A stretch of 64,000 bases of DNA from Thermoplasmatota archaeon (GTDB lineage Archaea; Thermoplasmatota; E2; JACPAO01; JAHFTW01): the NCBI GenBank assembly GCA_041601615.1, contig JBFIHX010000002.1:128001-192000 (forward strand), read 5' to 3'. The notes under the pieces are model-generated. The model worked only from the letters and a program-made list of their open reading frames with translations. It searched no databases and was not told the origin of the DNA. A program made the position numbers and the translations under genes. Shown here piece after piece: positions 1,480 through 63,559 of this stretch (its first letter is position 1; each line of letters begins with the position of its first letter).

Positions 1480-1489
1480 GCAAGCTAGG

Positions 1490-1753
1490 TTATGCTGCGA
1501 TGGCGCCTGCGTCTTGGTCCAGGTACCAGTAGGTCTGGCGCGTGTCGCGCAGGCTGATTTTGTGGCCCAGCAAGCCTTCGTCTTCCAGGCGGCGCAGGGC
1601 GCTGTAGAGGGTGCGGCGCGGTAGGCCGGTCTCTTCCTGGAGTTGCTTGTTGGTCATCGGTTCGTGGTCTTCGAGGGTGCAGAGGACCTTCATGACGCTG
1701 TCCGGGGCTCCGGGAACGAGGCGGGCGGCGTCACAGGGCGTGGGGCCTTCCAT
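1490..1753 (-). CDS. Small winged-helix transcription regulator (TrmB/MarR-like)
   Basis: MTNKQLQEETGLPRRTLYSALRRLEDEGLL...DTRQTYWY wHTH pattern. Confidence 0.8.
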   Translation of the reverse strand: MEGPTPCDAARLVPGAPDSVMKVLCTLEDHEPMTNKQLQEETGLPRRTLYSALRRLEDEGLLGHKISLRDTRQTYWYLDQDAGAIAA

Positions 1754-1823
1754 AGTAAATGGTATACATCCTTAACCTATATTACTGCAATGCTTAAACC
1801 AAAGGTGCCCCCATAGGACCCCT

Positions 1824-2174
1824 GTGAGCCCAGGCTGCTGTCCTTTCGAGAACGCCTTCGACCTGCTCTCGAAGAGGCACGCCCTCTCCATTCTGTGGTT
1901 CCTATCCGAAGAGAGCCCGCGACGGTTCACCGCATTTCGACTGAGCCTCTCCATCAACCCTGTTACGTTGACCCAACGGCTTGGAGAATTGGAACGCGCC
2001 GGCGTGGTCGAGCGCTCCGAATTCCGCGAAACACCCCCCCGCGTCGAATACGCCTTGACCCCAAAGGGCCAAGATTTGCTGCCCCTGCTGCAACAGGCGT
2101 GCACCTGGGCTAAGCGCTGGCAACCCGTCGAAGCCACAAACAGCGTCCCAAGCGGCGTAGCAACACGCCCATAA
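1824..2174 (+). CDS. HxlR-family winged-helix regulator
   Basis: N-terminal CP, LTQRLGELERAGVVER, PPRVEYALTPKG signature; divergent from the 1490-1753 regulator. Confidence 0.85.
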   Translation: MSPGCCPFENAFDLLSKRHALSILWFLSEESPRRFTAFRLSLSINPVTLTQRLGELERAGVVERSEFRETPPRVEYALTPKGQDLLPLLQQACTWAKRWQPVEATNSVPSGVATRP

Positions 2175-2197
2175 CCCGGACGCTCCCTGCAAGCGCC

Positions 2198-3106
2198 GTG
2201 GCACGCATCCTGGTGGTCGGCGAACGCGCCGGAGTAGCCGGACGCACCCTCCTGGAGCGCCTTGTGCGGCGCCTGCGCAGCCTAGGCCAGGACGCCGCCC
2301 TATACGGCCAGACCGACGAAGGCCCCGCTCGCTCCGTTGCCGAATGCGACGGCATCGTGGCCGTCCTAGACACCGCCGGAGCCGAAACCGCAGCCGTGGT
2401 CGCCTATGCGCACGCAAAGGGCAAACCGGTCCTGGGCCTCGCCCTACCGGACGCCACCATTCCCAAATTCCTAGCCGACGCCGCAAGCCTACACCGAGGC
2501 GCGGATGAAGAGACATGGAGCGAAGCGCTTCCCGGATTCTGCGACAAAGTGCGCCCCTTTGCAGGCAGACTCGTTCGCGACCAGGTCCCGAAGCTCGTCA
2601 AGGAAGCCGGCTACGACTTGACATTCCGCCAACTCAGTGCGGACGACAAACCGCGCTTCTTGAAGCAGAAAATCGCAGCAGAGGCGCAGGAATTAGAGAA
2701 AGCCGACCTGGGCCGCGAAAAAGAGGAAGTCGCCGACGTCCTAGAAGCACTGGAAGCGTTCCTAGTGGCCCGTGGCTTCGACCGCGAGGACCTACGGCGC
2801 GTCAAGGACGCCAAGCGCAAGCGACGCGGCGCATTCGAGCAATGCTGGGTGGTCGAAGCAACCGTGCCCGCGCAAGCACCCAACCAAACTCCCGGCCCCG
2901 CAGACCCCGCCGAGGCGTCCCCCGTCAAGGCCACCAAGCCCTCCACTTCCCCCAACCCCTCTGCGGCTACCGGACCCGTCCCGGAGCCAGCCTTGGAGCC
3001 CGCTGGCATCGACTTTGAGTTTCCAGAAGAAGACGTAGTGCCCGAGGAAAACGTGGATTCCGTCGGCCCGAACAAAACCGTGCAAGCCAACTTCTTCGAA
3101 GTATGA
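2198..3106 (+). CDS. Fusion of a nucleoside 2-deoxyribosyltransferase-like domain and a MazG-like NTP pyrophosphohydrolase, with a disordered tail
   Basis: ECDGIVAVLD...YAHAKGKPVLGL (NDT-like), then RLVRDQVP...EAQEL...EEVADVLEAL...KRKRRGAF (all-alpha NTP-PPase); Pro/acidic C-terminal tail. Confidence 0.7.
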   Translation: MARILVVGERAGVAGRTLLERLVRRLRSLGQDAALYGQTDEGPARSVAECDGIVAVLDTAGAETAAVVAYAHAKGKPVLGLALPDATIPKFLADAASLHRGADEETWSEALPGFCDKVRPFAGRLVRDQVPKLVKEAGYDLTFRQLSADDKPRFLKQKIAAEAQELEKADLGREKEEVADVLEALEAFLVARGFDREDLRRVKDAKRKRRGAFEQCWVVEATVPAQAPNQTPGPADPAEASPVKATKPSTSPNPSAATGPVPEPALEPAGIDFEFPEEDVVPEENVDSVGPNKTVQANFFEV

Positions 3107-15382: not shown

Positions 15383-16885
15383 CTATCTTCGGCGAGCGAC
15401 TGCAACGGCGGCTAGCAGGACGAGAAGCGCCACGACTCCGGGGCCGGGTACTTCTGGGTCGTCGGTGGGCGGAGCCACCACATCGGGTTCGATGCCGTTG
15501 CCGGCGGTGTCGAATGCGGCAAACAGTCCTTGTCCCTCGGTTTGGCGCAGCACCTTGCCCACGCGCTGTCGGTAGCCGTTGCTGCCGGGTTCCGCAGTAT
15601 CGGCACACTCGCCGACGCAACCGTCGGCCCAGCCGATGTGAACGCGGCCCATGCTGTCGATGTCCATGTCGTTGAAGTCCAGGAGGTTGCGGCAGTTGCT
15701 GCTTCCGGATACGACCACATCGTACACCCCGCCCACTTGGATGGGGTCGTTGGTAAGCTTGTGAACACTCCATGTTGCGCCCGCGTCGTAGGTGAATGCG
15801 GCGTAGTAGTTCCAGACCAGTTCGGCTTGGCGCTCGTCGCATTGGTAGATTTGGTTGCTTTGCAGGAATTCGAGATCGGCACCGGGCCCGCCTTCGAGGC
15901 CGATGAAGGTGATGGCTGCGCGGTCGTCGTCCCCCACTTGCACGTCGGCAAAGGTGCCAGCTACGATGGGAGGGTCGTGAAATTGGCCAATGTCCAGCCA
16001 TTTCGCTCCGGCGCCATCCCCGCCGCCAGTACCGAGTGTTTCCCAGGATGCTCCTTCGTCCTTGGTCATGGCCACATGGATGCCGTGTTCGCTTGCCATG
16101 CCGTAGTACATCCAACCGCCGGGCCGACTGAATTGGAGGCTGGGGTCGAAGCCATTCGTCCATTCCTCGGTGCCCGCGATGGTGTTGCTTTGGTAGGTCA
16201 ATCCGTTGTCGGCGGTGCTGATGTAGCCAAGTTCCCCGCAGCCCGCAACCGGGACCGCCATGAGTCCCGTGGCGCGAGACACGCGGATGTGGCCGTGGAA
16301 GCCGCCGCAGGTGCCACCCACATCCTGGAAGGGCAGGAAAGTCTGGCCGCCATCAAAGCTGACGGTGCAGGCGATGGCGCCGAATTGGCCGCAGTAGTAG
16401 ACGTTGTGGGCAAACAGGAGGTTCGGGCTGCCTTCCGTGCCGGGGCCGCTCCCGATGCTTTGGTGGTCAAAACGTACACCACTGCACATGTTTCCCGTGG
16501 GCACCCAGGTGCTGCCGTCGTCATCGGTCCAAAACATCACAGAACAAGGTCCCGCGAGTCCACCGGCCCAAACGCGACCAAGATCCGGATCTGCGTGCAG
16601 CATTGGGTCAAGGTTGGTGGGCACTTGGTATTCAGCGGTCACGTCCACCCACTGCACGCCGCCGCCGGTTGCGTCAAACGCGCCACGAATCGTGCTGCTG
16701 CCAGCGTGGAAGTACACATAGTCGGTGTTCCACGGGATGCCGAGCGTCGGTTCGGGAGCGTTTTCGGCGCCGGGCACCGCGTACTCGGTAAATCCTGGCT
16801 CGCCGTTGCCAAATCCGGCAGCATCCACACCCGGCACCAAGCCGAATGCGATGAGCAAAACTAGGCTGGTCGCGGCATTCTTCAT
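15383..16885 (-). CDS. Secreted BNR/sialidase-like beta-propeller protein with PGF-CTERM-like anchor
   Basis: Signal peptide; Asp-box repeats TDDDGSTW, SFDGGQTF, TADNGLTY, TKDEGASW, TYDAGATW; C-terminus VPGPG-TM-RRR. Confidence 0.85.
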   Translation of the reverse strand: MKNAATSLVLLIAFGLVPGVDAAGFGNGEPGFTEYAVPGAENAPEPTLGIPWNTDYVYFHAGSSTIRGAFDATGGGVQWVDVTAEYQVPTNLDPMLHADPDLGRVWAGGLAGPCSVMFWTDDDGSTWVPTGNMCSGVRFDHQSIGSGPGTEGSPNLLFAHNVYYCGQFGAIACTVSFDGGQTFLPFQDVGGTCGGFHGHIRVSRATGLMAVPVAGCGELGYISTADNGLTYQSNTIAGTEEWTNGFDPSLQFSRPGGWMYYGMASEHGIHVAMTKDEGASWETLGTGGGDGAGAKWLDIGQFHDPPIVAGTFADVQVGDDDRAAITFIGLEGGPGADLEFLQSNQIYQCDERQAELVWNYYAAFTYDAGATWSVHKLTNDPIQVGGVYDVVVSGSSNCRNLLDFNDMDIDSMGRVHIGWADGCVGECADTAEPGSNGYRQRVGKVLRQTEGQGLFAAFDTAGNGIEPDVVAPPTDDPEVPGPGVVALLVLLAAVAVARRR

Positions 16886-16929
16886 GCCAGCCAGTGGCCC
16901 CCGCCGGGGATGAACGTTGTGCCCAATCC

Positions 16930-18417
16930 CTACGGACGCTTTCGTGCCACGAGTAGGGCGCCAAACACGGCCGCGAGCACGAGCAAGGCGCCCGGTGCTG
17001 CGATGCCCTCGGAGTCACCGTCCTCCGGGGGGTCTTCGAGGTCCTTGATGTCCGTCGGCTCCTTGTCGAATGCCGCAAACAGCCCCCGGCCATTGACTTG
17101 GCGAGCCAGCGTTGCATGGGCATCGCGGTACCCCTCCGATCCAGGTTGGAGCGTCTCGGCGCATTGCCGGGTGCAGCCGTCCGCAAGCGCAATGTGGATG
17201 CGACCTTCGCTGTCCAGATCCATGTCCTTGAAGTCCAGCAGATTTCGGCACGACCCGTCGCTGGCTGGGTCAAAACCACCATCAAAAATGCCTCCAACTT
17301 GGATGGGGTCGTCCGTAACGCGTTGCACGTCCCAGGTGTTGCCCGCGTCGTAGCTGATGGCAACGTAGGCGTGCCAGACCATGTTTTCCTGATTCTGGGA
17401 GCACTGGTGGATCGCGTCGCCGCCTCCGTATCCTCCCTCTCGCGCTTCGAGGCCTAGAAAACTCATGGCAACTCGATCGTCGTCTCCCGCCTGCACATCC
17501 GCAAACATCGCATGCACCACGGGCGGGTCATGCAGAGCGCCGATGTCGAGCCAGGCGTCCCCGTCTGCCCCAAGCGGCTCCCAGGTCAAGCCCTCGTCCT
17601 TGGAAAGTGCCACATGGGCCCCTGAATCGCCGGCTTGTCCAAAGTAGATCCAACCACTGGGTCGACTGAATTGGATGCTTGGATCAAACGCCCGCTCCGT
17701 TGGCGCCACAGGCACCGCTCGGCTGTCCCAAGTCAAGCCATCATCCTCCGTGTACGCAAATCCGGCAACTTCCCCGCAGGAAGCATCCGGCAGAGCCGCA
17801 AGCCCGGTGGCGCGAGACACCCGGATATGGCCATGGATGCCTCCACAATCCCCGAGCACCTGCACAAAGGGGCCCCACACGACGCCGCCATCCAAGCTGA
17901 AAGCGCAGGCGGTGCGCACGAGCTGAGCGCAGTAGTAGGTAGCGTGCGGAAACACCTGCAAAGCCTCAGGCGTCACCGCGAAGGGGCCGCTGCCGATGCT
18001 CTGGTGGTCAAACTGCACGCCGCTGCACATGTTGCCCGTGGGCGTCCAAGTGGAACCGTCGTCGTCCGTAAACGCCATTTGGCTGCACGGACCAAGAAGC
18101 CCGCCCGCCCAAACGCGCCCGGTGTCCGGGTCCGCGTGGACCATCGGATCTACATTCATCCGACTCGTAATGGGCGTCACGTCCTGCCAATCCGGTACAT
18201 CCATCTCGTCGAATGTGACGCGGAAAGTGGCGGTGTAGCTCTGGTAGAACACATGGTCCGTGGTCCACGGAATGCCAATCGTCGGCTCGCCGGCCGAATC
18301 CGACAAGGGCAAACCAGGGGGCGCCGCGTAGACCTCGAATGCCGGACTCCCAAGCCCAAGCTCGGCGCTCGCTACGGGCACCAACAGGAGCAGAAAAACC
18401 AGCAACAGTGTGCGCAT
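16930..18417 (-). CDS. Secreted BNR/sialidase-like protein, tandem paralogue of 15383-16885
   Basis: Shared blocks EPTIGIPW, DPMVHADPD, PTGNMCSGVQFDHQSIGSGP, HGHIRVSRATGL, CRNLLDF; C-terminus AAPG-TM-RKR. Confidence 0.85.
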   Translation of the reverse strand: MRTLLLVFLLLLVPVASAELGLGSPAFEVYAAPPGLPLSDSAGEPTIGIPWTTDHVFYQSYTATFRVTFDEMDVPDWQDVTPITSRMNVDPMVHADPDTGRVWAGGLLGPCSQMAFTDDDGSTWTPTGNMCSGVQFDHQSIGSGPFAVTPEALQVFPHATYYCAQLVRTACAFSLDGGVVWGPFVQVLGDCGGIHGHIRVSRATGLAALPDASCGEVAGFAYTEDDGLTWDSRAVPVAPTERAFDPSIQFSRPSGWIYFGQAGDSGAHVALSKDEGLTWEPLGADGDAWLDIGALHDPPVVHAMFADVQAGDDDRVAMSFLGLEAREGGYGGGDAIHQCSQNQENMVWHAYVAISYDAGNTWDVQRVTDDPIQVGGIFDGGFDPASDGSCRNLLDFKDMDLDSEGRIHIALADGCTRQCAETLQPGSEGYRDAHATLARQVNGRGLFAAFDKEPTDIKDLEDPPEDGDSEGIAAPGALLVLAAVFGALLVARKRP

Positions 18418-21717: not shown

Positions 21718-23058
21718 CTACGCCCGCCCAAACACACCAAGCGGTCCGAGCACGTCTTGGACGAAGTGGTGCCCGCGCACGCCGAGGGCGCCCGACTCGT
21801 ACACGACACCTTCGTGGACAATGATGTCCCAGACATTGGTGCCGGGTTCTCGGTCGAAGCCCAGCACGGCGGGAGCGAATTGTAGCTTGGGCGTGCTGAT
21901 GTCGAGCACAAAGATGCCAAGGCCATAGTGGGCGAGGTACACCTTGCCGTCTTCGACCTGAATGTTGTGGGTGCTGGTGATTTCCTCGCCGGGGACCATG
22001 TCGCGGCCGGCGGGGGCTTGATCGGGGTTTTCCCAAGTACCTAGGAGTTTGATGTCGGCGGGATTGGTGGTGTCCCAGACGTAGACGATGCTGCGGTCGG
22101 TGCCAAGAACGTAGTGCGTGCCGCCCACGACCGCGAATCCTACTTCGACGCTGCCGACGGTGATGCGTCGGTCGCCGATCCAGTCGGTCACGGTGGTGTG
22201 CAGGTTGCCCTCGTGTCCTTCAGGGAAGGCATTCCATCCTCCCAGTTCCACGGGTGCCGCGGGGTCGGTGACGTCGACGATGCGCAATCCCGCGTCCCAG
22301 TAACTGACATACATCAAGGTGCGGCCGTCGGGCTCGTTCATGACAAACATGTCGTGCGCGTAAAGCTGGTAGTATGCGTCCAGAACCTCAGGGTCGCGGT
22401 TGACGTCGGTCACCGGGTTGGCTGCGTATCGGCTGACCTCGTGCAGGGTTCCCGTTTCGCGATCAAAGTGGTTGATGCTGATGTCCGCGTTGGCGCCGAA
22501 CACCCACTCCGTGCCATCGGGTTGCTGGTGGTAGAACACCATATGCGGGCCGCGCAGAGGGCCGACGGGGAGGTAGGAGACGATCTTGGGCGCGGTCTTG
22601 TCGGCAAAATCCAGGACATAGAAGCCGCCGGCGCGCAGAGGTGTTCCGCCAAGGGGGGCCATGCTCAGTTGTTCGTCGTTGCCCACGAATGCCCACATGC
22701 CGTCGTCGCTCACTTTCACGTCCTTGGCTCCGGGAACGTCAATGCTGGAAACCGTCTCCAGGCCCAAGGACCCGTCGGCGTTCCAAGTGCGCTCTAGGAT
22801 GTAGATGGTGCTGCCACGGTCCACGAACACGTAGTCGCCCCAGGCGTCCACTTCCTCGCCGCCGCCTTCGCCCCAAATGCCTAGGTGGTGCATATTGGCC
22901 GAGACGTTGCCCCCGGACCAAGCCGCAAGCACGTCTTCCAGCACAATTGCCGGAGGGCGCTTGCCAAGGTCATCTTGATTGTCGGAGTCGCCTTCGTCGT
23001 CAAGGCACCCCGCCAGGGTGGTTAATCCGAGGACTGCAACAAGCATCCAGGAGCGCAT
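21718..23058 (-). CDS. LVIVD-repeat lipoprotein
   Basis: LAGC lipobox; GLRIVDVTDPAAP, GIFVLDISTP, HDM/HT/HN His motifs. Confidence 0.85.
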   Translation of the reverse strand: MRSWMLVAVLGLTTLAGCLDDEGDSDNQDDLGKRPPAIVLEDVLAAWSGGNVSANMHHLGIWGEGGGEEVDAWGDYVFVDRGSTIYILERTWNADGSLGLETVSSIDVPGAKDVKVSDDGMWAFVGNDEQLSMAPLGGTPLRAGGFYVLDFADKTAPKIVSYLPVGPLRGPHMVFYHQQPDGTEWVFGANADISINHFDRETGTLHEVSRYAANPVTDVNRDPEVLDAYYQLYAHDMFVMNEPDGRTLMYVSYWDAGLRIVDVTDPAAPVELGGWNAFPEGHEGNLHTTVTDWIGDRRITVGSVEVGFAVVGGTHYVLGTDRSIVYVWDTTNPADIKLLGTWENPDQAPAGRDMVPGEEITSTHNIQVEDGKVYLAHYGLGIFVLDISTPKLQFAPAVLGFDREPGTNVWDIIVHEGVVYESGALGVRGHHFVQDVLGPLGVFGRA

Positions 23059-24696: not shown

Positions 24697-25953
24697 TCAG
24701 ACCAACCGCGTCGCCAGCAAATCATCACTGGCGTGGTACACCCATCCATCGTAGTACATGGAGTCCCAAGTGCTTCCTTGTGGCGGCTGCACATCGAGCA
24801 CCGTGGGGGCGGCTAGGTCCGTGAAATCCACAAGCACGGTGCCGCCTTCGTACCAGCCCATGACGAACGCTTCGTGCCCGGGGATGATGTCTCCAAAGTG
24901 GGCACCGCAGTTGCCTTCGAGGGGGCTTGGCGGGGCTCCGTCTCCGCTCCAGCCGCTTGGGTTTTGGACGTATGCCTTCTGGACGGGGCTGGTTTCGTCG
25001 CTGATGTCGTAGATCCATGCAGCAGCGAGGGGAACTTGGTCTTCGCTGCCAACTCCGGGGATGTCTGCGTCCATGCAGTTGTTTGCGCCGGCGGGCACGT
25101 TGGGCAGGAAGGGCCCCACGTATTCGTCGTTGATGATGAGCACGGTGCCGGCGTCGTTTGCGAACGCTTGGTGGTGGTACTTGATGCGCGGGTCGTCGAT
25201 GGCAGAGAGCCAGACGGGGGCGAGCGGGTCTGTGATGTCCCAGATGAAGGTCTCGCCACCAAGGCCGTAGTATTTGCCTCCGCCACCGGCACAGTAGGCG
25301 CGGTTCAAGTCCACTCGTACGCTGATGTCGTGGCAGCCGTTGCTTTCGACCACGGTCGTGCCGATGAGGCGCGGAATCGGGAAGCTGTGCGACACGGGGG
25401 CAGCGGGGTCCGTGATGTCGAGCACGTCGACGCGGTACAGGTCGCCGCTGGAGCCGCTGCTGTAGGCGTAGGGCGTGCCGGGTACGGCCGCGAGGTTGTG
25501 CACGCCTCCGGAGGGGAGCGTCGTGGTGGACACGAGCACGAGGTCACGGGGGTCCGTGGCGTCCACGATGTGCACGCCGTTGCCGCCGCCCGCCAGGAGC
25601 GCATAGGTGCGACCTTGCCATTCGAGCACGTCCACGTCGCGGGCGCCATTGATGCTCGTAAGGTTGCCAAGAATCACGACGTTTTGCGCGTCGCGTGCGT
25701 CAGCGGTCCAGAGTTCGCCGCCGTTGGTCCAGAACAAGACCCCCTGGTGCAGCCAAATGCCTTGGCCGCCGCCGGGCATTTCCTTCGACACCGTCTCGCC
25801 GAATTGGCTGAACGAAACAGGCGGAAGGAGTTCGCCTGCAATGCCGGTGTAGATGGGGTCTGGACCGGTGTCGACGGGGCCCGTGGCGTCGTTGTCGAGG
25901 CAACCTGCGAGGGTGCCGACGGCGAGAACGAGGAGGACCGTGATGGCGCGCAT
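24697..25953 (-). CDS. LVIVD-repeat lipoprotein
   Basis: MRAITVLLVLAVGTLAGC; GVHIVDATDP, VLDITDPAAP, GCHD, YHHQ, CGAHFG, GTVLVDFTD. Confidence 0.85.
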   Translation of the reverse strand: MRAITVLLVLAVGTLAGCLDNDATGPVDTGPDPIYTGIAGELLPPVSFSQFGETVSKEMPGGGQGIWLHQGVLFWTNGGELWTADARDAQNVVILGNLTSINGARDVDVLEWQGRTYALLAGGGNGVHIVDATDPRDLVLVSTTTLPSGGVHNLAAVPGTPYAYSSGSSGDLYRVDVLDITDPAAPVSHSFPIPRLIGTTVVESNGCHDISVRVDLNRAYCAGGGGKYYGLGGETFIWDITDPLAPVWLSAIDDPRIKYHHQAFANDAGTVLIINDEYVGPFLPNVPAGANNCMDADIPGVGSEDQVPLAAAWIYDISDETSPVQKAYVQNPSGWSGDGAPPSPLEGNCGAHFGDIIPGHEAFVMGWYEGGTVLVDFTDLAAPTVLDVQPPQGSTWDSMYYDGWVYHASDDLLATRLV

Positions 25954-26054
25954 GCGGGAGCGGGTGGGTTCGAGGAGCTTAGGGATTGTGGCGGTGCCTG
26001 TGCGGGGGAGTGAATTGGAGACAACTCTGAACGCTTTGAGTCCGATTGGTCCCA

Positions 26055-26258
26055 ATGCGTGGATGGACTCTCGCCATCTTTGCCCGATTCGTCCTGCGGA
26101 TGGTTGCGCCAGCTGCTACTGCGGAGACCTCTATGTGTACAACAGTGGAGCGTTTGGGCTCGGGCATCAATGCCAGGTACAGTCCATACCCTCCGCCCTC
26201 TGCGTGGGTCCAGGTGCTAGATTACCGGGTGACGGTGATACCCTTCGAATGCTTGTAA
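26055..26258 (+). CDS. Possible small secreted 2-Cys peptide (P2)
   Basis: Signal-like MRGWTLAIFARFVLRMVAPAATA, then ETSMC...FECL; fits the gap between two genes; the h-region is interrupted by Arg. Confidence 0.4.
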   Translation: MRGWTLAIFARFVLRMVAPAATAETSMCTTVERLGSGINARYSPYPPPSAWVQVLDYRVTVIPFECL

Positions 26259-39043: not shown

Positions 39044-39316
39044 ATGCGAATTCTGCTCTTGGTAAGCATGGCTGTCAGTCTCGCCGTCGTCCCGTCTGCC
39101 TCTGCGTCCCCGTGTGTCGGCGCCAACGTGCCTTGCTGGTCCGAATACGGTCAAGAACAAGCCAACCGCGAGATCGACAATGTTCAGCAGGCCATCAACG
39201 ACGGCATCGACACCGCGCAGGACCTGCTTGTATGGCTGCTGGGCATGGCCACGGATCCGCCGCCTGTTGTGTGCTGGAATCAGGAACCCATTTGGCCTGT
39301 CATTGGACGTTGCTAG
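39044..39316 (+). CDS. Small secreted 4-Cys peptide (P3)
   Basis: Signal ending AVVPSASA; C-x6-C, amphipathic acidic helix, C-x12-C. Confidence 0.78.
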   Translation: MRILLLVSMAVSLAVVPSASASPCVGANVPCWSEYGQEQANREIDNVQQAINDGIDTAQDLLVWLLGMATDPPPVVCWNQEPIWPVIGRC

Positions 39317-39402
39317 GCTGCGTTTTGCTCCGGCGTCGGCCGCCCACTCGATAATGAAGAGCCGCCGCACAAGCGTCTAGGACCTGAGCGATATGTCCTC
39401 GC

Positions 39403-39669
39403 ATGCGCCCCCTCCTCGTGCTCGCCCTTCTGGGCCTAAGCCTCGCATTCGTACCGTCGGTCTCCGCTGCGCCTTGCAATGGACAGCTTGCCATTGAGAC
39501 GGAATGCTGGATCGAATACGTCGAACCCCGGGTCAACAGTGTCGTCGACACGGCGCAGGAAACCGCAAACGACGCCGTCGACGATGTGCAGGGTATCCTG
39601 TTTCCTGAAGACCCGTACGCCTGCTGGCGCCTGCCTCCCGTGCGCCCCTACATCGACCAGTGCTGGTAG
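39403..39669 (+). CDS. Small secreted 4-Cys peptide (P4)
   Basis: Signal ending AFVPSVSA; C-x9-C, helix, C-x12-C-W. Confidence 0.8.
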   Translation: MRPLLVLALLGLSLAFVPSVSAAPCNGQLAIETECWIEYVEPRVNSVVDTAQETANDAVDDVQGILFPEDPYACWRLPPVRPYIDQCW

Positions 39670-39670
39670 G

Positions 39671-39930
39671 TCGGCACCGGTCATTCCTGTGACCGCGCAG
39701 GCTGCGGCGTGCCCTGCAACGCCCAGTACTTGTCGGGCATCGACTGCCACATCGATTACTGGCAAGTCCGCACCGATTACGCCATCGACACCGTGGAGGA
39801 CACGACCCAACAGGACCTGAGCCTAGTCCAGGACGCGGTCAACCGGCAACTCGACAAGTGGGGCGCCATCGCGGACGACATCTACGAGGGCATCCCCTGC
39901 GTCGGCCCCGGCGGGCCCGTCTGCTGGTAG
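39671..39930 (+). pseudogene. Third tandem 4-Cys peptide (P5), 5'-truncated or frameshifted
   Basis: Mature part PCNAQYLSGIDC...PCVGPGGPVCW (39709-39930) is intact; the signal remnant VIPVTAQAAA lies in another frame. Confidence 0.6.
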
Positions 39931-43285: not shown

Positions 43286-43984
43286 TCATGCAACGGGGGA
43301 CACAGCCGTTGGCGCGCTCTCGGCGGGGGTGCCGGGGCCGTCGTGTTCGCCGACTAGGGCTTGGTAGTACACGGCCACCGCCTGGCCAATCCAAGTGATG
43401 GATACGAGCACCCCGAGCACCAGCACCAAAAGGCCTGCGAGCACGATGAGAAACGACAGGATTCCGAGCCCAAACAGCGACCAGAATCGACCGCGTGTCA
43501 GCTCCCAGCTTCGACGCAGCGCAGCAACCGGGCCCTGCCGCTCGTCCAACAGCGCATAGGTCGTGAAGGTCAAGCGAACCGCCACGTAGATTCCCGGCAG
43601 AATCAGCAGTAGTAGCCCGGCCATGACGGCGAGCCAGGCAAGAACGGCCGTCCCAACCGCCTGGGGCCAGATGCGCCAACCCTCCAACCAGTCGCCAAAC
43701 TTGGGTGTCTTGCTGCGGCTTACTCGAAGATGGGCCCACGCGAGGCCCGTAGAAAACGGAGCAAGCACAAGAAACGCATACAGCAGAAAAATCGTCTGAA
43801 GTCCAAAGGCGGCCGCCGCGCTAGCATCGCCAAGAACGAGCCCCGCGATGCTACCCGGAGCTTCCAGCAAGAGGGTTAGGAATGCGAGACCGACGAGAAG
43901 CCAGAAAGGTGCTCGAATGTTTTGGAACGCCCGTTTCAAAACGGCCGCGACGCGAACGGGTCGGTTGCTTGGAGGAGACGACAT
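43286..43984 (-). CDS. Hypothetical membrane protein (GDPD membrane-domain/DUF975-like)
   Basis: [25 protein letters not shown] motifs; about five TM helices. Confidence 0.8.
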
Positions 43985-44081
43985 TCAGCCACGCCACCCG
44001 GCGCGCCCTCAAGAACGGGCCTTGCAGCTTTGGGCGGCAGCAACCGGAGCCCGGGTCAGACAGCGCGATGTGTCGGCTTGC

Positions 44082-44336
44082 TCAGTTGCTCGTTTCGAAC
44101 ATGTTGATGACACAAGCGCCGTCCCAAGTGCGCCCGTAATCATCGTACCACCCGGCGCAGTACTGCGTGCACGTGGACTGCGAACAGGGGTAGGTGCCGA
44201 CGCAATAGTAGCGCGGAATCTCCATGTGGTCCAAGACACACACTTCGTCTTGAGCAGCGGCAGGCTCGGCGACCAGCAATGCGGCAAGAGGCATGAGCAG
44301 GAGCAGAGCTGTGGCGACCAGGGTTTGGCGGCGCAT
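44082..44336 (-). CDS. Small secreted 6-Cys peptide (P6)
   Basis: Hidden at the end of a shadow ORF: signal [28 protein letters not shown], then a 56-aa mature peptide with 6 Cys, Tyr-rich. Confidence 0.7.
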
Positions 44337-44495
44337 GGGGCCGAATCTTGGGCTTGCAAATTGAGCGTTGTCGCCAACATCCTCCCCACATCTGGTCCAC
44401 ACTGCCTGGAACGGAGGGGCACGGTGCTGCATTTGGGCCTGCCTTCGGGGACCCCTCTCGCCAACCCTTATCAATTCGGTCGGGTCGGCACGGCC

Positions 44496-45827
<1,332 letters not shown>

Positions 45828-45922: not shown

Positions 45923-46285
45923 TTACGGGAAGACTACGTTGCAGAAGGAACCGGCAAAGGCACGGCAGTTGCTCTCCGCCACCGTCTCGGCGGTCGTGAT
46001 GTAATCATTGCCGATGCCAACCGCGGTTTCGATTCGGAGGTTGACTTCGACGATGAGGGGGTTCACGATGCCTTCTGCCGTGGTGATGGCAAAGCATTGC
46101 GTGTCGAGCACGAAGTCCACCGTTTGTTCCACGGGGGAGTCGCCGGGTTGGCTACACGGAATGGGCGGGGCTTCCGACATCTCCAGTTCCTCCAATTGGG
46201 GCGGCTGCATGGCAAACGCGGAGGCAGACGGCAGGAGCATCAGGGTCAGCATCGCGGTCATCGCGACGGGTAGGGCTTTGGTCAT
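45923..46285 (-). CDS. Small secreted 4-Cys peptide (P7), divergent from the LOX-like gene
   Basis: Signal ending MLLPSASA; C-x19-C, long amphipathic helix, C-x7-C. Confidence 0.72.
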   Translation of the reverse strand: MTKALPVAMTAMLTLMLLPSASAFAMQPPQLEELEMSEAPPIPCSQPGDSPVEQTVDFVLDTQCFAITTAEGIVNPLIVEVNLRIETAVGIGNDYITTAETVAESNCRAFAGSFCNVVFP

Positions 46286-46480: not shown

Positions 46481-47845
46481 ATGGGCGCACAACTCCCCTG
46501 CCTGCTCTTGCTTGCCTTGACGGTATTTGGGGGATGCCTCGAGAATGATTCCGCCGGCTTCCAGCCACTGGAAAGAGTGGATGAGGACCTGATTCTCATG
46601 TGGCAAAGTCCAAACTTGGTTGGACCCGAACAGAGCAACGACAACAACCCCCCGCCCATCATGCCCCGCCCACCCCGCCCCGCGTGCGACGGCGCCAATT
46701 GCCATGTGCAGAACTTCACCATCGGGGACACCGGCGGCCGAGACGTCGCCATCAGCATCGAATGGGAAGGCCAGGACGAATCCTATGACCTTGGCAACGG
46801 GCCCGCCGGGTACCTCGGATCTGCGAACCTAGCCCTTGACTTGGTGATTCTGCGAGACGGCGTGCAGATCACAGACGGCGTGGAGTCGTTCCACTATGCC
46901 GGCGTTGCAATCCTGCACGACCCGGAACCCGGCGCGTACGCCGCCGAAGTGGTCGCCCGCTGGGGCACGGGAAGCTACCTCGGCGTCGTGCGTATCCAGG
47001 ACCCGAACCCCGGCTCTGATGTGCAAAAGCATGCTCTTGGGTTGCCAGACCTGGTGATGCTGCCGCCGGACCATTTGACCTTCGAGCAACCGCTGCTTGC
47101 CCAAGCATCCTTGGCACTCTCGGCAATTTCCCCCGGCTGTGGCCCCGACGAATTTGTAGAAGATCAAGAGCTGCGCTGCCTGCGCTTTGCCGGAATTCTA
47201 GGCAACCAAGGGCCCGGCGACCTAGAAACCCGGCTGCAATACGACGAAGCGGTTCGATCTACACTGGGCTCCGGCAACTGGGAACAACGCATCTTTTTGC
47301 CCGAAGGTGAAGAGACCATCACGATTGGGCCCGCACAGTACCATGCCGTGCACGGCCACTACCACATCCTCGATTTCGTAGACACCCACCTCTACGCATA
47401 CGACGAGGAAACCGGCACCCGCGGCGACGAACTGGGCACCGGACGAAAAACAGGCTTCTGCATCATCGACGGCGGCCTCATCGACCCCCTTGCACCAGCC
47501 GTCCCGCCCAAGTACCACGGCAACGGCTGCTGCTATCTGGCCGGCCTTTGCCAACTCGACATGGCAACCAACCCACACTTCGTCATGGGCATGAGTGCCG
47601 GCTGGTACGACATCTACCCCTGGTGGCGCGCCGACCAATACGTGGAGGTCCGTGGAATCACCGACGGCACCTACGAACTCGTGTCCGTGATCAACCCCGA
47701 TGGACTCCTACGAGAAGGAAACCAAGCCAACAACGAAGCAAGCACCGTGTTCCGCCTCACCGGAAACACCATCGAGATGCTGTCGCAACACACCCAAGCC
47801 GACGTAGGGCCCCACCTCGACGCCGATTGGGGCTACGGCGCATGA
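46481..47845 (+). CDS. Lysyl oxidase-like lipoprotein
   Basis: FGGC lipobox; RCLRF, YHAVHGHYH (Cu site), GRKTGFC (LTQ Lys), GMSAGWYDIY (LTQ Tyr), DQYV..DGTYEL..INPD..E..NN. Confidence 0.83.
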   Translation: MGAQLPCLLLLALTVFGGCLENDSAGFQPLERVDEDLILMWQSPNLVGPEQSNDNNPPPIMPRPPRPACDGANCHVQNFTIGDTGGRDVAISIEWEGQDESYDLGNGPAGYLGSANLALDLVILRDGVQITDGVESFHYAGVAILHDPEPGAYAAEVVARWGTGSYLGVVRIQDPNPGSDVQKHALGLPDLVMLPPDHLTFEQPLLAQASLALSAISPGCGPDEFVEDQELRCLRFAGILGNQGPGDLETRLQYDEAVRSTLGSGNWEQRIFLPEGEETITIGPAQYHAVHGHYHILDFVDTHLYAYDEETGTRGDELGTGRKTGFCIIDGGLIDPLAPAVPPKYHGNGCCYLAGLCQLDMATNPHFVMGMSAGWYDIYPWWRADQYVEVRGITDGTYELVSVINPDGLLREGNQANNEASTVFRLTGNTIEMLSQHTQADVGPHLDADWGYGA

Positions 47846-52173: not shown

Positions 52174-52301
52174 ATAGGGTATTGCTGGGCGCCAAGAGGC
52201 CATAAATGCCGAGGCGAGCGGCTCTCTGGCTCCCTGCGCCGCGACTCGGCCTTGTTTTTGGGTATAGGAGGCTCTTTCGCGGCGGCCCGACTGGCGCGCC
52301 T

Positions 52302-53618
52302 GTGCGCCTTCTCGTCGTGGCCCTGTTTCTGATTCTCCCACTTGCTGGGTGCCTGGATGCTGACTCTAGCGATCCGATCATGGACGAACCCGACCTTTTT
52401 GCTCGCAAACCCGCCCTTGCGTTTCGGGCAGTCGTGGACCTTGGAAGCAAAGCCGGCATCATGGACACCGGCGTTGGCGCCGTCGGGACCTCCTGCCAGG
52501 ACAGCGTGGATGACGGCGACTGCGGTCTCGGTGAACCGACCCTGGAAGTGGACGGCCGAGGCACGGTATACGTCAGCGGCGTCTGCTGCCTCACCGTGGC
52601 GCCCCCGGTCGTCGTAAGCCGCGACGGCGGCGCAACGTTCTCGCCTCTGTCCACGCCGGGTGTTCGCGAGGCATTCGGAATCGAGGGTGACTTTGCCGTG
52701 GACGCAGAGGGGCGCGTGTACTTCTCGGACATCGAAATGGCCGGCACGTTCCAGGTCACCGTCTGGGACAAGGATGGCGAGTACCTGCGACACACCAAGT
52801 GGCCTGCCCCCCCGCTCGTCGACCGCGACTGGGTGCGCGCCGAAGGCGACGGCACGGTCTACTACATCTACAACACCGGATTCTTTGGCACCCGCGTCTA
52901 CAAGAGCACAGACGCCGGCATGACCTGGAGCCCCGACGCCATCCACGTCGTCCCCTACGGCCTTGGCAACGTCGCAATTGACCCCGGACGCGAACTTTGC
53001 TTGTTTGGCGGCAACCTCGACGGCTTCCGACGCCTCGATTGCAGCCAAGACGGCGGGGCAACCTGGACCACCGAAACCAGCTCGCTCCCCGTGGGCGACG
53101 AGGCCTACCCCGTGGGCGCCTACGACGAAGCCGGCACCTTGCACCTTGCCGAGGCCGCAGGCGGACGCATCACCTACACACACCGCGACGCCAACGGATC
53201 CTGGGGCGAAGTGCAACAAATTGGCCCCGACGAAGGCCAACAACGCATGCCGTGGATCGCAGCCGGCGCCCCTGGCGCTGTGGCACTTGCTTGGTACGGC
53301 ACCAACGCCACCGACGGCAACGGCGACTGGTTCCTACATGCTGCAGCCAGCCGCAACGCCGACCAAACCGTGCCCGCCGCTCGCTGGGATACCGTCATCG
53401 CCGACCCCGAACCGGTCTTCCAGGGTGCACTTGGCCGCGACCTTCTCGACTTCCTGCAAGTAGAACTCGGCCCCGACGGAGCCATGCACATCGCCTACAG
53501 CAAGAACCGCCCCGGCCAAGGCCCCGACGGCAACGAGGAACAATTGCAGTACGTCCGCAGCGAAGCAAGCCCTCTAGCCGCCAGCCGGTACGCTTGGGGT
53601 CCTGTACCGGAAGCCTGA
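52302..53618 (+). CDS. BNR/sialidase-like lipoprotein
   Basis: GTG start, LAGC lipobox; SRDGGATF, STDAGMTW, SQDGGATW Asp boxes; GEP, DRDW, LLDF. Confidence 0.83.
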   Translation: MRLLVVALFLILPLAGCLDADSSDPIMDEPDLFARKPALAFRAVVDLGSKAGIMDTGVGAVGTSCQDSVDDGDCGLGEPTLEVDGRGTVYVSGVCCLTVAPPVVVSRDGGATFSPLSTPGVREAFGIEGDFAVDAEGRVYFSDIEMAGTFQVTVWDKDGEYLRHTKWPAPPLVDRDWVRAEGDGTVYYIYNTGFFGTRVYKSTDAGMTWSPDAIHVVPYGLGNVAIDPGRELCLFGGNLDGFRRLDCSQDGGATWTTETSSLPVGDEAYPVGAYDEAGTLHLAEAAGGRITYTHRDANGSWGEVQQIGPDEGQQRMPWIAAGAPGAVALAWYGTNATDGNGDWFLHAAASRNADQTVPAARWDTVIADPEPVFQGALGRDLLDFLQVELGPDGAMHIAYSKNRPGQGPDGNEEQLQYVRSEASPLAASRYAWGPVPEA

Positions 53619-61245: not shown

Positions 61246-62496
61246 TCAGCTCGCTCGCAATTCCGCAGGCGTGCCCAGAATCTCCACGTCGTTGCCTGTC
61301 AGCCGGAACACGATGCTTGCTTCATTGTCGCTGGTGTCCGATTCCACGAGTGTGCCATCGGGGTCGGCAACATTGACCAATTCATAGACGCCGTCGGGAA
61401 CGCCCGCCATGTCCACATATTGGTCTGCTAGGTAGTATCCATACAAGTCGTACCACCCAGCACTGACTCCCATGCGCGGCTCAATGGTCGCCAGGACGAT
61501 TTCCACCGGGAGCGGCAGCTCGCCATCTAGGCACTTGTAGCCCCCTGCCGAAGTGCCAAGGCTGCCCGGTTGGGCTAGGCCCCAATCCTCGAAGCAGAAC
61601 CCCGTCTTGCGGCCGGAGTTCACGGCCTCGCCGCGGGACAAGGTATCCAAGTCGTAGCCGTACACGGTGGCTCCGAGGGCGCCTTCGTAATGGAAATGGC
61701 TGTGAAACGGGTGGAACCGGGCAGGAGCCGCGGGAACCTCTCGTTCTCCATTTGCCGTTTGGATGACCTGGATCCATTGCCGTTGTGCGTTGGTCTCGTC
61801 GTTCAAATGCGCCACGAGGTCGCCTGCACCCGTGTTCGTAAAGCCACTCGAAAAGCGCAAGCAACGGCGCGAGCCTTGCTCCACGAACTCCTCGGCAAGG
61901 CAACCGCTGCCCAGCACGGGCCCCAGCGGGACGAACAGGTCGTCAAAGATTTCCAAGTGCGCCGGCACTAAGGCCCCCAGATTGGGCAACAAATCGTCGG
62001 AAGCATCCGGAACCGGGGCAGTCTCCAGTTGCACAACCACCTCAAATGGAACATCCTCCGATAGCTCTGGTGCGGCTTGGATGCGCAATTCGTAGGAACC
62101 CGACTGCGCCGTCTTCATGAGGGAGACGCTGGAGTAGTACAAGTCCGTCGCAGAAGCAACTTGGATGGCCTCTCCGGCTCGGTGCAAGGACGAAGTGTAC
62201 GCATGCCGGATGGAACCATACGGACGGTAGTCCCAAGTGACGCTCGCCTCCAAATTCAAATCGCTGCCCTCGGGAACGGACACCTGGAATTGGTACACGG
62301 GGCACGCCGAGGTGCATTGGCCAAGCCAGCGCAAAGGCTCCGTGCCGGTGGTGGCCGCCGCACTTGCCAAAGCGTCCTGAGGCGACGTTGCCAATCGAGG
62401 AACGTTGTTGGACAAAAGATCATCTTGGCCCGGTTCAGAACCGCCAAGACAACCGCCCAAGGACATAAACAGAAGCAGAACGAGCACTACCCGCAT
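61246..62496 (-). CDS. Lysyl oxidase-like lipoprotein (second paralogue)
   Basis: LGGC lipobox; RCLRF, FHPFHSHFHY, GRKTGFCFED, GVSAGWYDLY, DQYVD..DGVYEL..DPD..ES..DN. Confidence 0.85.
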   Translation of the reverse strand: MRVVLVLLLFMSLGGCLGGSEPGQDDLLSNNVPRLATSPQDALASAAATTGTEPLRWLGQCTSACPVYQFQVSVPEGSDLNLEASVTWDYRPYGSIRHAYTSSLHRAGEAIQVASATDLYYSSVSLMKTAQSGSYELRIQAAPELSEDVPFEVVVQLETAPVPDASDDLLPNLGALVPAHLEIFDDLFVPLGPVLGSGCLAEEFVEQGSRRCLRFSSGFTNTGAGDLVAHLNDETNAQRQWIQVIQTANGEREVPAAPARFHPFHSHFHYEGALGATVYGYDLDTLSRGEAVNSGRKTGFCFEDWGLAQPGSLGTSAGGYKCLDGELPLPVEIVLATIEPRMGVSAGWYDLYGYYLADQYVDMAGVPDGVYELVNVADPDGTLVESDTSDNEASIVFRLTGNDVEILGTPAELRAS

Positions 62497-62595
62497 ACGT
62501 TGGGCAAGAATGAGGGGTGGAAAAGGGATGCTGGGTAGTAGGTGCCGGAGCTGGCAGAGAAACATCGCGTTGCTCGGCTTCTCTACCGCCCCCCA

Positions 62596-62679
62596 AGCGC
62601 CTGTCGGCGCTCGGGGTCCGCTCGGCCTGCGGCCTCGCTGCGTTGAAGAAACTTCGCTGCGCTCAGCATCTTCAACGCA
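62596..62679. repeat. REP-like multi-hairpin element
   Basis: AGCGCC-tgtc-GGCGCT hairpin (62596-62611) and 11-bp stem TGCGTTGAAGA/TCTTCAACGCA (62639-62679) enclosing CTTCGCTGCGCTCAG. Confidence 0.55.
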
Positions 62680-62785
62680 CTTTGTAATCGGTCCAATGGT
62701 CAGTACGTAGAACACACATAGAACACGGGTTCTCGCTCGGCAAGGGGTGCAAACGCGAGTGGGACTTAGGGGAATGCCCGCACGG

Positions 62786-63559
62786 CTATTCGAACCGTAC
62801 AGCGCGCATGGACAAGTCGCCCATGTCGAATCCCTCGATGGGGAAAGAGACCTCGTCCCCTTCCGCAACCCCCGCGGCGTACAGCAAGGGCAGGTAATGG
62901 TCGGGCGTGGGGTGTGCGTCTCGACCAACGTCGGTCTGAAGAGCCGATAGCAGCCATTGTTTGTCGCCTTGCTCTACGGCTTTTGCCGCGCGTTCATCGA
63001 ACTCGGCGGTTTGAGGTTCGGTGCTGGTGTCCCGGACCCGCATCTTGTGGAAGGCGCGACCAAAGTTGTGCGTGATGTTGCCGGAGCCCACGATGAGCAC
63101 ACCCTCATCCCGCACCGGGCGAAGGGCTTGCCCGATGGCCCAATGGGTCTCCATGGCCGCCGTGGCGTCGATGCTGACTTGGACAATCGGCACGTCGGCT
63201 TTCGGGTACATGTGGCGTAGGACGCTCCATGTGCCGTGGTCGATGCCCCAGTCGTGGCGCACGTCGGCTCCGACGTCTTGGAGCAAGTCTGCGGTCTCTA
63301 TGGCGAGATTCGGGTCGCCTTTGACGGGGTATTGCACGTCGTACAATTCGGGTGGAAATCCCCCGAAGTCGTGGATGGTCTCTGGGTCGTCGTTGCCCGT
63401 GATGTGGGTTCCTTGGGTGTAGTAGTGGGCAGAGATTGCCAGCACGGCCCACGGCGTGGGGATGCCATCGCTCAATCCTTGGAACGCCTTGCTCCATTGA
63501 TTGTCTTGGATCGCATTCATGGGGTTGCCGTGGCCCACGAACAGTGCTGGCATCGTCAT
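62786..63559 (-). CDS. ygiD: 4,5-DOPA extradiol dioxygenase (YgiD/LigB family)
   Basis: LFVGHGNPMNA, ISAH, TIHDFGGFP, GIDHGTW, GSGNITHN, AHPTPDHYLPL. Confidence 0.92.
   Translation of the reverse strand: MTMPALFVGHGNPMNAIQDNQWSKAFQGLSDGIPTPWAVLAISAHYYTQGTHITGNDDPETIHDFGGFPPELYDVQYPVKGDPNLAIETADLLQDVGADVRHDWGIDHGTWSVLRHMYPKADVPIVQVSIDATAAMETHWAIGQALRPVRDEGVLIVGSGNITHNFGRAFHKMRVRDTSTEPQTAEFDERAAKAVEQGDKQWLLSALQTDVGRDAHPTPDHYLPLLYAAGVAEGDEVSFPIEGFDMGDLSMRAVRFE

Follow-up and report, generated by a model that had tools for sequence, protein, structure and literature searches.

Three tandem genes of a marine Thermoplasmatota archaeon define a genus-level family of small, secreted-type, four-cysteine hendecad proteins

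When several short genes of one archaeal genome encode secreted-type proteins that look alike, do they form one family, and what would such proteins do outside the cell? The question is raised by a 64,000-nucleotide stretch of a Thermoplasmatota genome (G000:C2:128001–192000, hereafter the window), taken from an assembly, G000, of 2.79 Mb in 30 contigs with 61.7% GC and an estimated completeness of 93%. Five short open reading frames (ORFs) of the window, P1, P3, P4, P5 and P7, were grouped by the original prediction into a single fast-evolving archaeal family of disulfide-stapled, lipid-binding peptides that gene callers would mostly miss. We compared these ORFs with each other, with related genomes and with large protein collections. 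The five do not hold together as one family: P3, P4 and P5, which lie in tandem and are referred to below as the trio, are related to each other, P1 belongs elsewhere and P7 stands alone. From these comparisons we conclude that the trio represents a real, undescribed, genus-level family of small secreted-type proteins with four cysteines and a helix region of 11-residue (hendecad) repeats.

Most of the descriptive details behind the original prediction proved accurate. The signal peptides end in TPSASA (P1), VPSASA (P3), VPSVSA (P4) and LPSASA (P7); P5 has no signal peptide, and a remnant of one is found in another frame just upstream. The number of Cys is exactly four in every mature part; the C-terminal pair is spaced by x12 in P1, P3 and P4 and by x7 in P5 and P7, and a DTAQ motif is present in P1, P3 and P4. 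All five ORFs have a coding-like composition, with GC content at third codon positions (GC3) of 0.69–0.92 versus 0.41–0.49 at second positions (GC2), as in the confirmed genes of the window (GC3 is 0.69 for P3, 0.75 for P4, 0.92 for P5 and 0.78 for P7). The expectation that gene callers would pass them over was mistaken, since all five are present as called proteins, P3 with a shorter start.

Kinship was tested on mature domains alone, with phmmer, against the six-frame ORFs of the genome. P3 and P4 match each other at E 2e–6, and P4 and P5 do so at E 0.008–0.014; with full-length sequences the corresponding values are 1e–12 and 0.004. We take P3, P4 and P5 to be true paralogues on this evidence. 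In contrast, mature P1 and mature P7 find no match other than themselves, so that the idea of a fast-evolving archaeal secreted family with conserved Cys stands for P3, P4 and P5 and falls for P1 and P7. When the profiles of the P1 and trio families were aligned with hhalign, the probability was 0.13%, and a jackhmmer search started from P1 pulls in dozens of small ORFs that are linked via the signal peptide only. P1 is accordingly best placed in a family distinct from the trio. This P1 family has five copies in G000 and three in the sister genome G002, which has a syntenic P1 orthologue with ∼77% identity, and its Cys layout is x10 / x12–20 / x11–12. Four of its genes form a tandem array outside the window (G000:C2:34418–35682; locus L008 916–2183, minus strand) and encode proteins of ∼65–70 residues with near-identical signal peptides and four Cys, the last loop of which contains a conserved Trp. 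The DTAQ motif of P1 is unproven as evidence of kinship to the trio: it is found in 22 of 38,653 stop-to-stop ORFs, and the P1 orthologue reads NTAQ instead. For P7, no credible relative was found in 40 related genomes or in a collection of 5.8 billion proteins, and we regard it as an orphan.

We do not read the likeness of the five ORFs in signal-peptide ending and even Cys number as kinship, because both traits are genome-wide. With a loose signal-peptide pattern (a hydrophobic core followed by P-x-x-[ST]-A), which gives raw counts that include some non-coding frames, 107 ORFs of G000 were picked up, 76 of them with a mature part of no more than 130 residues. Among these 76, an even and non-zero number of Cys occurs in 65, at least four Cys in 55 and exactly four in 34; a ‘pair, gap, pair’ layout is found in 11 under spacing limits that we set loosely. 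The Cys content of long ORFs in the genome is 1.11%. Overall, these counts indicate that G000 carries a large lineage-specific secretome of disulfide-type mini-proteins, and that in this organism the trio family stands among dozens of even-Cys families of small secreted proteins. Many of the small signal-peptide ORFs are arranged in tandem arrays (C2:108055–108762, C3:64475–65498, C1:204530–206138, C7:50182–51611 and C11:58643–62169).

The same genome encodes a membrane-anchored, DsbA-like Thioredoxin_4 protein (70 bits) with a CSSC site and one transmembrane segment (G000:C1:208349–211798, locus L020, ORF 1432–2502, minus strand). Based on the even Cys counts across the small secretome together with this CSSC protein, we consider that each mature protein of the trio family probably contains two disulfides, which would pair its four Cys. 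The DsbA-like protein also has an N-terminal stretch resembling a C2H2 zinc finger, and its gene lies a few kb from a cluster of small secreted Cys-containing ORFs (C1:204530–206138 and C1:211645–211887).

How far does the trio family extend? Homologues exist beyond the window, as had been anticipated, and seven members are known: P3, P4, P5 and the proteins designated here G002, G001, P0005 and L007. Overall identity among them is 25–43%, and all four Cys are conserved in seven of seven. The member of the sister genome G002 was found at E 2.4e–24 and is syntenic, single-copy and equipped with an intact signal peptide; the L007 member, on a metagenome contig found by a scan with P0005, is 85% identical to P0005. 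A profile search of 1.84 billion representative proteins returned 17 matches at E ≤ 0.001. Six of these are small proteins, namely P3, P4, P5, P0002 (the G002 member), P0006 (the G001 member) and P0005 (99 residues). The other 11 are large proteins aligned only over profile positions ∼20–57, that is, over the repeat region. Ten of them were rejected as repeat and composition matches. Seven of the ten were inspected: P0007–10, P0013 and P0014 are RTX calcium-binding repeat proteins according to Pfam, and P0011 appears to be the same by eye; the other three are P0012, P0015 and P0016. The eleventh, P0017, was retained as a lead.

Beyond the seven, no other relative of the trio family was found among the 1.84 billion representative proteins. 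With P4 as query, a word-based search of the 5.8-billion-protein collection returned only P4 itself, and the ESM Atlas gave no usable match for P4 or for the G002 member. No Pfam or NCBIfam model was matched by P1, P3, P4, P5 or P7. A profile search of the PDB gave only helix segments of influenza haemagglutinin HA2 (E ≥ 0.035), which we judged to be chance helix matches. The trio family thus corresponds to no family already described in these three resources, in agreement with the original prediction. Of 41 related genomes searched in full, 3 contain the family. At the level of the taxonomic family, 3 of 32 genomes have it, all three in one genus (g1), and it was not found in the 29 genomes of ten other genera; many of these genomes are 65–90% complete, and absence here means not found in the genomes searched. 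All known members lie in this one genus or on one unassigned metagenome contig.

The position of the genes is conserved in part. The trio and the single G002 gene are both situated between an RNase-H-like gene and the gene for deoxyhypusine synthase; the trio is flanked by one divergently and one convergently oriented housekeeping gene. The L007 gene likewise adjoins an RNase-H-like gene, and the G001 gene sits at a different locus. In other genera the same slot is near-empty (65 bp in G003, 170 bp in G006) or contains unrelated genes. One occupant, P0018, a 259-residue frame (L034 2448–3224, plus strand, equivalent to G012:C130), was considered as a further member and rejected (hhalign versus trio, 0.28%). 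It has a signal peptide and two modules, each with C-x7-C, a long hydrophobic/acidic helix and C-x5/6-C, and no relatives of it were found among 38 genomes of the order. P0018 thus parallels the trio in position and architecture without detectable sequence similarity to it.

Members of the trio family share a distinctive architecture. Six of the seven begin with ‘MR’ and a signal peptide of 20–22 residues, P5 being the exception; the ‘MR’ start is common to P3, P4 and the G002, G001 and L007 members. Mature proteins are 64–77 residues long. At the N-terminus lies a loop of the form P-C-xn-C followed by an aromatic position ([WHM] in the pattern), with n = 9 in all members except P3 (n = 6) and G001 (n = 11). 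In the C-terminal loop, C-xn-C-W, P3 and P4 have n = 12 and G001 has n = 8; the remaining four have n = 7. Pro and Gly lie between the paired Cys in both loops. The proteins are strongly acidic, with a net charge of –7 to –13 per member (the median for long ORFs of the genome is –0.027 per residue). Lys and Arg are almost absent; when the five most frequent residues are listed for each repeat position, they turn up at positions 2, 3 and 7 only, and there in small numbers.

The stretch between the second and third Cys, 37–54 residues long, is periodic. Its hydrophobic moment peaks at 99–102 degrees in six of seven members (∼99 degrees corresponds to a period of 3.64; shuffle test, P-value ≤ 0.004 in those six). 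A lag of 11 residues gives the best self-similarity in five of seven (shuffle test, P-value 0.0006–0.009), the values for G002 and G001 being 0.08 and 0.047, respectively; the claim of an 11-residue periodicity above chance is thereby borne out. The 11-residue units that had been quoted for P3 and for P4 have 4 of 11 residues in common within each pair. We cut the Cys2–Cys3 region of every member into 11-mers from the invariant Asp and obtained 21 repeats in total: four each in L007 and P0005, three each in P5, G002 and P3, and two each in P4 and G001. Helix length is variable, as originally proposed, and spans two to four hendecads. The consensus of the repeats is [VA]-N-x-x-[ILV]-D-x-[VA]-[QE]-[DE]-x. 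Positions 1, 4, 5 and 8 are hydrophobic in fractions of 0.67, 0.62, 0.95 and 1.00 of the 21 repeats. Asn predominates at position 2, and 16 of the 21 repeats have Asp at position 6; Gln or Glu occupies position 9, and an acidic residue (Asp or Glu) position 10. Hydrophobic residues at 1, 4, 5 and 8 correspond to the a/d/e/h pattern by which hendecad helices pack. On the Kyte–Doolittle scale, the helix region averages about –0.6 to 0.0.

A comparison with the sister genome allows the history of the trio to be outlined. P5 is the positional orthologue of the single-copy G002 gene, with 62.5% amino acid identity over 72 codons and a ratio of nonsynonymous to synonymous substitution rates (dN/dS) of 0.31 (dN 0.263, dS 0.846). 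For the adjacent RNase-H-like gene, identity to G002 is 88.8% and dN/dS is 0.068. Selection on the trio-family gene is therefore purifying but relaxed. P5, G002, L007 and P0005 have the x7 C-terminal loop and a long helix region in common; P3 and P4 share a shorter helix and the x12 loop. Because P5 has the loop type and helix length of G002, L007 and P0005, we infer that it is the ancestral copy and that P3 and P4 are later, lineage-specific duplicates. An ancestral single gene between the RNase-H-like gene and deoxyhypusine synthase would have been duplicated twice in G000, after which P3 and P4 would have acquired shorter helices and a new x12 C-terminal loop, and P5 would have lost its signal peptide.

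At the DNA level, ∼60–70 nucleotides of the signal-peptide coding sequence of G002 are absent from the region of P5, and the rest is out of frame. The junction between P4 and P5 is identical in bridging contigs of four sequencing runs of one study, three of which may be the source of the assembly. An assembly error in a single data set therefore does not account for the missing signal peptide of P5. P5 is probably decaying or no longer exported. We also considered a TAG read-through joining P4 to P5, which are in the same frame and one TAG apart, and rejected it: such read-through is not expected because TAG is an ordinary stop here and ends 524 of 1,314 long ORFs.

What kind of protein might this architecture produce? 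In the explanation that we favour, and whose chances we put at about even, the trio proteins are Sec-exported, disulfide-capped helical mini-proteins in which helix packs on helix and does not coat lipid. A Sec-type signal peptide, visible in the sequence, would direct export and be removed by cleavage after an A-x-A site. The four invariant Cys of the two terminal P-C-xn-C-W loops would then probably be oxidised outside the cell to two disulfides. The two to four hendecads between the loops, with hydrophobic residues at positions 1, 4, 5 and 8, would form an amphipathic 11/3 helix that is strongly acidic and whose hydrophobic seam is narrow. This seam would be buried by helix–helix packing, within a hairpin in the longer members and/or between subunits. 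With both ends clamped by the Cys loops, we would expect an extracellular mini-protein that is soluble and resists proteases, and not a membrane-coating helix. We prefer helix–helix packing to lipid coating because of the extreme anionic charge, the scarcity of Lys and Arg and the restriction of hydrophobic residues to ∼4 of 11 positions. As for function, a weakly held guess is an extracellular binding or surface-associated role with rapid diversification; a cell-surface or antagonistic role would be in keeping with the fast divergence, the change in copy number and the restriction to one genus.

A number of points weigh against this explanation. An 11/3 amphipathic helix is also used by lipid-surface binders, and packing is preferred on charge and seam width only. 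The fold is inferred, and structure prediction is weak evidence for it: AlphaFold2 models P4 (from a five-row alignment) as one helix at mature residues 12–32 with an unusably low confidence score (predicted local distance difference test, pLDDT, 40.7), and the L007 member as helices at 7–33 and 38–59 with a weak mean pLDDT of 58.3 (62–72 in the core blocks). A complex prediction for two copies of mature P4, run without controls, scored 0.02 (mark, 0.42) and speaks in neither direction on self-association. In G000, at its 93% completeness, the DsbA-like protein has no VKOR-type partner that could be found. No transporter, immunity, export, maturation or modifying-enzyme gene is present at the trio locus, which gives no pointer to a role. 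Only seven sequences are known, from some four or five lineages, the selection estimate comes from a single orthologue pair, and for a functional gene a dN/dS of 0.31 means relaxed constraint. P5 may be a young pseudogene. Finally, the sequencing runs listed for this DNA are four in number, all of DNA and all from one marine-metagenome study, with no RNA run among them.

Other explanations have to be set against the helix-packing one. In the lipid-binding scheme of the original prediction, all five ORFs would form one family of disulfide-stapled peptides similar to apolipoproteins, synuclein or late embryogenesis abundant (LEA) proteins, with 11-mer helices lying on lipid. The 11-residue periodicity and the amphipathicity are real, and the order of signal peptide, Cys pair, helix and Cys pair is common to all five; since this layout recurs in 11 of the 76 small ORFs, a fast-evolving structural class could have escaped sequence methods. 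However, P1 and P7 have no sequence link to the trio, and no apolipoprotein (PF01442), synuclein or LEA_4 (PF02987) model of Pfam was matched at E up to 10 by the six members scanned, nor did the trio match any Pfam model at E up to 0.01. Lipid-surface 11-mers carry basic residues at the boundary between polar and non-polar faces and have a broad hydrophobic face. The trio proteins, at –7 to –13 and almost without Lys/Arg, have a narrow a/d/e/h seam in which only positions 1, 4, 5 and 8 are mainly hydrophobic, and the low Kyte–Doolittle mean of the helix region (about –0.6 to 0.0) also disagrees with a lipid-coating surface. We hold lipid binding by a single five-member family to be quite improbable. 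Still less credit, and very little in all, is given to the view that the ORFs are non-functional, either chance frames or decaying relics in a variable intergenic slot. The lost signal peptide of P5, the emptiness of the slot in some related genera (65 bp in G003, 170 bp in G006) and the lack of relatives of P7 in the genomes and collections searched would suit it, but frames are intact and four Cys are kept in seven members of several lineages, six of seven have retained the signal peptide, the GC3 signal is strong, and dN/dS is 0.31.

The sequences could instead belong to a secreted, disulfide-stabilised conflict molecule, such as an archaeocin-like antimicrobial, an effector against competitors or an anti-virus decoy, diversified by an arms race. 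The excess divergence of the gene over its neighbour (62.5% versus 88.8% identity), the change from one copy to three between sister genomes, the confinement to a single genus (three of the 32 genomes in the family, none of 29 in ten other genera) and the company of many tandemly duplicated small secreted Cys-rich families all point in this direction. Yet the locus lacks an immunity, export or maturation gene, dN/dS is 0.31 and not above 1, and neither Pfam nor NCBIfam gave a match, whether to a described archaeocin family (halocins, sulfolobicins) or to any other. Most membrane-active peptides are not strongly anionic, as these proteins are. We consider a conflict role unlikely. Binding of metal or another cation by the four Cys in place of disulfide formation, perhaps with Asp/Glu, would make the proteins small extracellular buffers or chaperones, or their Asn, Asp and Gln, spaced at 11 residues, could recognise a periodic surface (mineral, ice or glycan). 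Such a role is suggested by the invariant Cys pairs next to aromatic residues, by the regular Asn (position 2), Asp (6) and Gln/Glu (9) on one face, by the extreme acidity and by ZIP and cation efflux transporter genes in the window, not adjoining the trio. It is nevertheless improbable in our estimate: Cys spacing varies (x6–x11 and x7–x12), which suits loops better than a fixed metal site, the even Cys counts of the small secretome point to disulfides, and there is no genomic link to metal genes. A broader speculation, which we rate as distinctly unlikely, is that the genus maintains a ∼50-gene, fast-turnover arsenal of Sec-exported disulfide-rich mini-proteins, many of them in tandem, similar to the effector and defensin-like secretomes of eukaryotes. 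The trio family would then represent a fold class of its own, a hendecad helix with Cys-loop caps in which duplication adjusts the number of repeats. Its acidic extracellular bundle would attach to a target with a regular lattice (an S-layer, a virus capsid, or a mineral or ice surface) in cell-surface defence or attachment.

Coordinates of the five ORFs, of elements within the trio and of other features are collected in the table below.

Features of the window (positions are counted from its first nucleotide)
Feature	Position	Strand	Description
P1	24403–24612	+	69 residues, secreted-type, four Cys, x10 / x15 / x12; separate family
P3	39044–39316	+	90-residue precursor; 21-residue Sec-type signal peptide at 39044–39106; mature part 69 residues
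P3 Cys spacing			x6 / x45 / x12
P3 hendecad region	39161–39259	+	three 11-mers from the invariant Asp anchor; best lag 11, P-value 0.003
P4	39403–39669	+	88-residue precursor; 22-residue signal peptide at 39403–39468; mature part 66 residues
P4 Cys spacing			x9 / x38 / x12
P4 hendecad region	39532–39597	+	two 11-mers; best lag 11, P-value 0.009
P4–P5 spacer	39670–39708	+	out-of-frame remnant of the P5 signal peptide
P5	39709–39930	+	GTG start, 73 residues, without signal peptide; Cys x9 / x50 / x7
P5 hendecad region	39772–39870	+	three 11-mers; best lag 11, P-value 0.004
P7	45923–46285	–	120 residues, orphan, secreted-type, four Cys, x19 / x42 / x7
P7 C-terminus	45923–45940	–	...NVVFP
Element before P1	24388–24405		GGTGAATTC[CT]
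Element before P7	46283–46300		GGTGAATTC[CT]
BNR-repeat protein	15383–18417
LVIVD-repeat protein	21718–23058
LVIVD-repeat protein	24697–26055
Isocitrate dehydrogenase ORF	43848–45827		overlong 5' extension
Small secreted Cys-rich ORF	44082–44336	–	84 residues, signal peptide, eight Cys
Lysyl-oxidase-like protein	46481–47845	+	secreted, PF01186
BNR-repeat protein	52206–53618
Lysyl-oxidase-like protein	61246–62928	–	secreted, PF01186

Genes of the window are archaeal in kind (aIF5B-type IF2, TiaS, deoxyhypusine synthase, FEN1-like and RadA-like genes). The window is also rich in genes for extracellular proteins, with lysyl-oxidase-like domains in two secreted proteins and with LVIVD-repeat and BNR-repeat proteins. 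A Shine–Dalgarno-like element, GGTGAATTC[CT], stands directly before the ATG of both P1 and P7 and is absent from the trio genes and their relatives; upstream of the trio genes, no conserved promoter or ribosome-binding motif was seen by eye. The residues NVVFP are the very end of P7, which has no transmembrane tail. A further small secreted Cys-rich ORF is antisense inside the overlong 5' extension of the isocitrate dehydrogenase ORF; the Iso_dh domain begins only at residue 246, so the true start of that gene is probably much further downstream.

Eukaryotes and some bacteria have small secreted disulfide-rich proteins that have been studied in detail. In the literature we found no description of such proteins in Thermoplasmatota, nor did a wider search for archaea return one. 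The trio locus provides a clean minimal example, a family of seven members in which the Cys are invariant, the hendecads vary in number and the duplications can be dated, and it points to a genome-wide repertoire of ∼50 such genes. As an orphan family it is of moderate importance. If expressed, the proteins would lend themselves readily to synthesis, to mapping of their disulfides and to structural work, and would show what a marine archaeon releases into its surroundings.

Among known systems, the trio family would work most like a short hendecad coiled-coil element, here capped by Cys loops. Hendecads of the tetrabrachion type have hydrophobic residues at positions a, d, e and h, which matches the pattern of the trio. 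The right-handed stalk of tetrabrachion is described as an archaeal extracellular coiled coil of hendecads (PMC6555900). The likeness consists in an extracellular location, which for the trio is predicted, an archaeal origin and an 11-residue periodicity. However, there is no sequence similarity between the two, and the PDB profile search gave no credible match; the trio proteins have only 64–77 residues and two to four repeats, bear Cys loops at both ends and are far more acidic. The profile match P0017 (322 residues) contains a region rich in hendecads of the form [AV]-N-x-x-[IV]-D-[TN]-[AV]-Q with a best lag of 11, and one unit is nearly identical to a unit of P3. Its repeats lack Cys-pair loops and are followed by a CAP domain (PF00188), and the profile E is only 7.8e–4, on a repetitive region.

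The 11-mer amphipathic helices of apolipoproteins, alpha-synuclein, perilipins and group 3 LEA proteins lie on lipid surfaces (PMC5889406, PMC4276801). They resemble the trio in the 11/3 amphipathic helix and in a variable number of repeats. They differ in that the trio has no profile match to them, is very anionic and possesses a narrow seam, a signal peptide and four conserved Cys. Alpha-hairpinins, one kind of disulfide-stapled helical hairpin, are plant defence peptides (PMC7191063, PMC11591084). They too are small, secreted and four-Cys, and a helix-loop-helix is predicted, at low confidence, for the longer trio members. The alpha-hairpinin motif is C-x3-C ... C-x3-C inside two helices, whereas the trio has pairs of x6–x11 and x7–x12 in loops containing Pro and Gly, with no C-x3-C and no homology; alpha-hairpinins are, moreover, eukaryotic and usually basic. 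Twin CX9C (CHCH) proteins of the mitochondrial intermembrane space form a four-Cys helical hairpin, of the kind that would be expected here too, and the first Cys pair is C-x9-C in five of seven trio-family members. In the trio, however, the second pair is x7, x8 or x12 and never x9, the loops contain Pro and Gly, a signal peptide is present and no Pfam model is matched.

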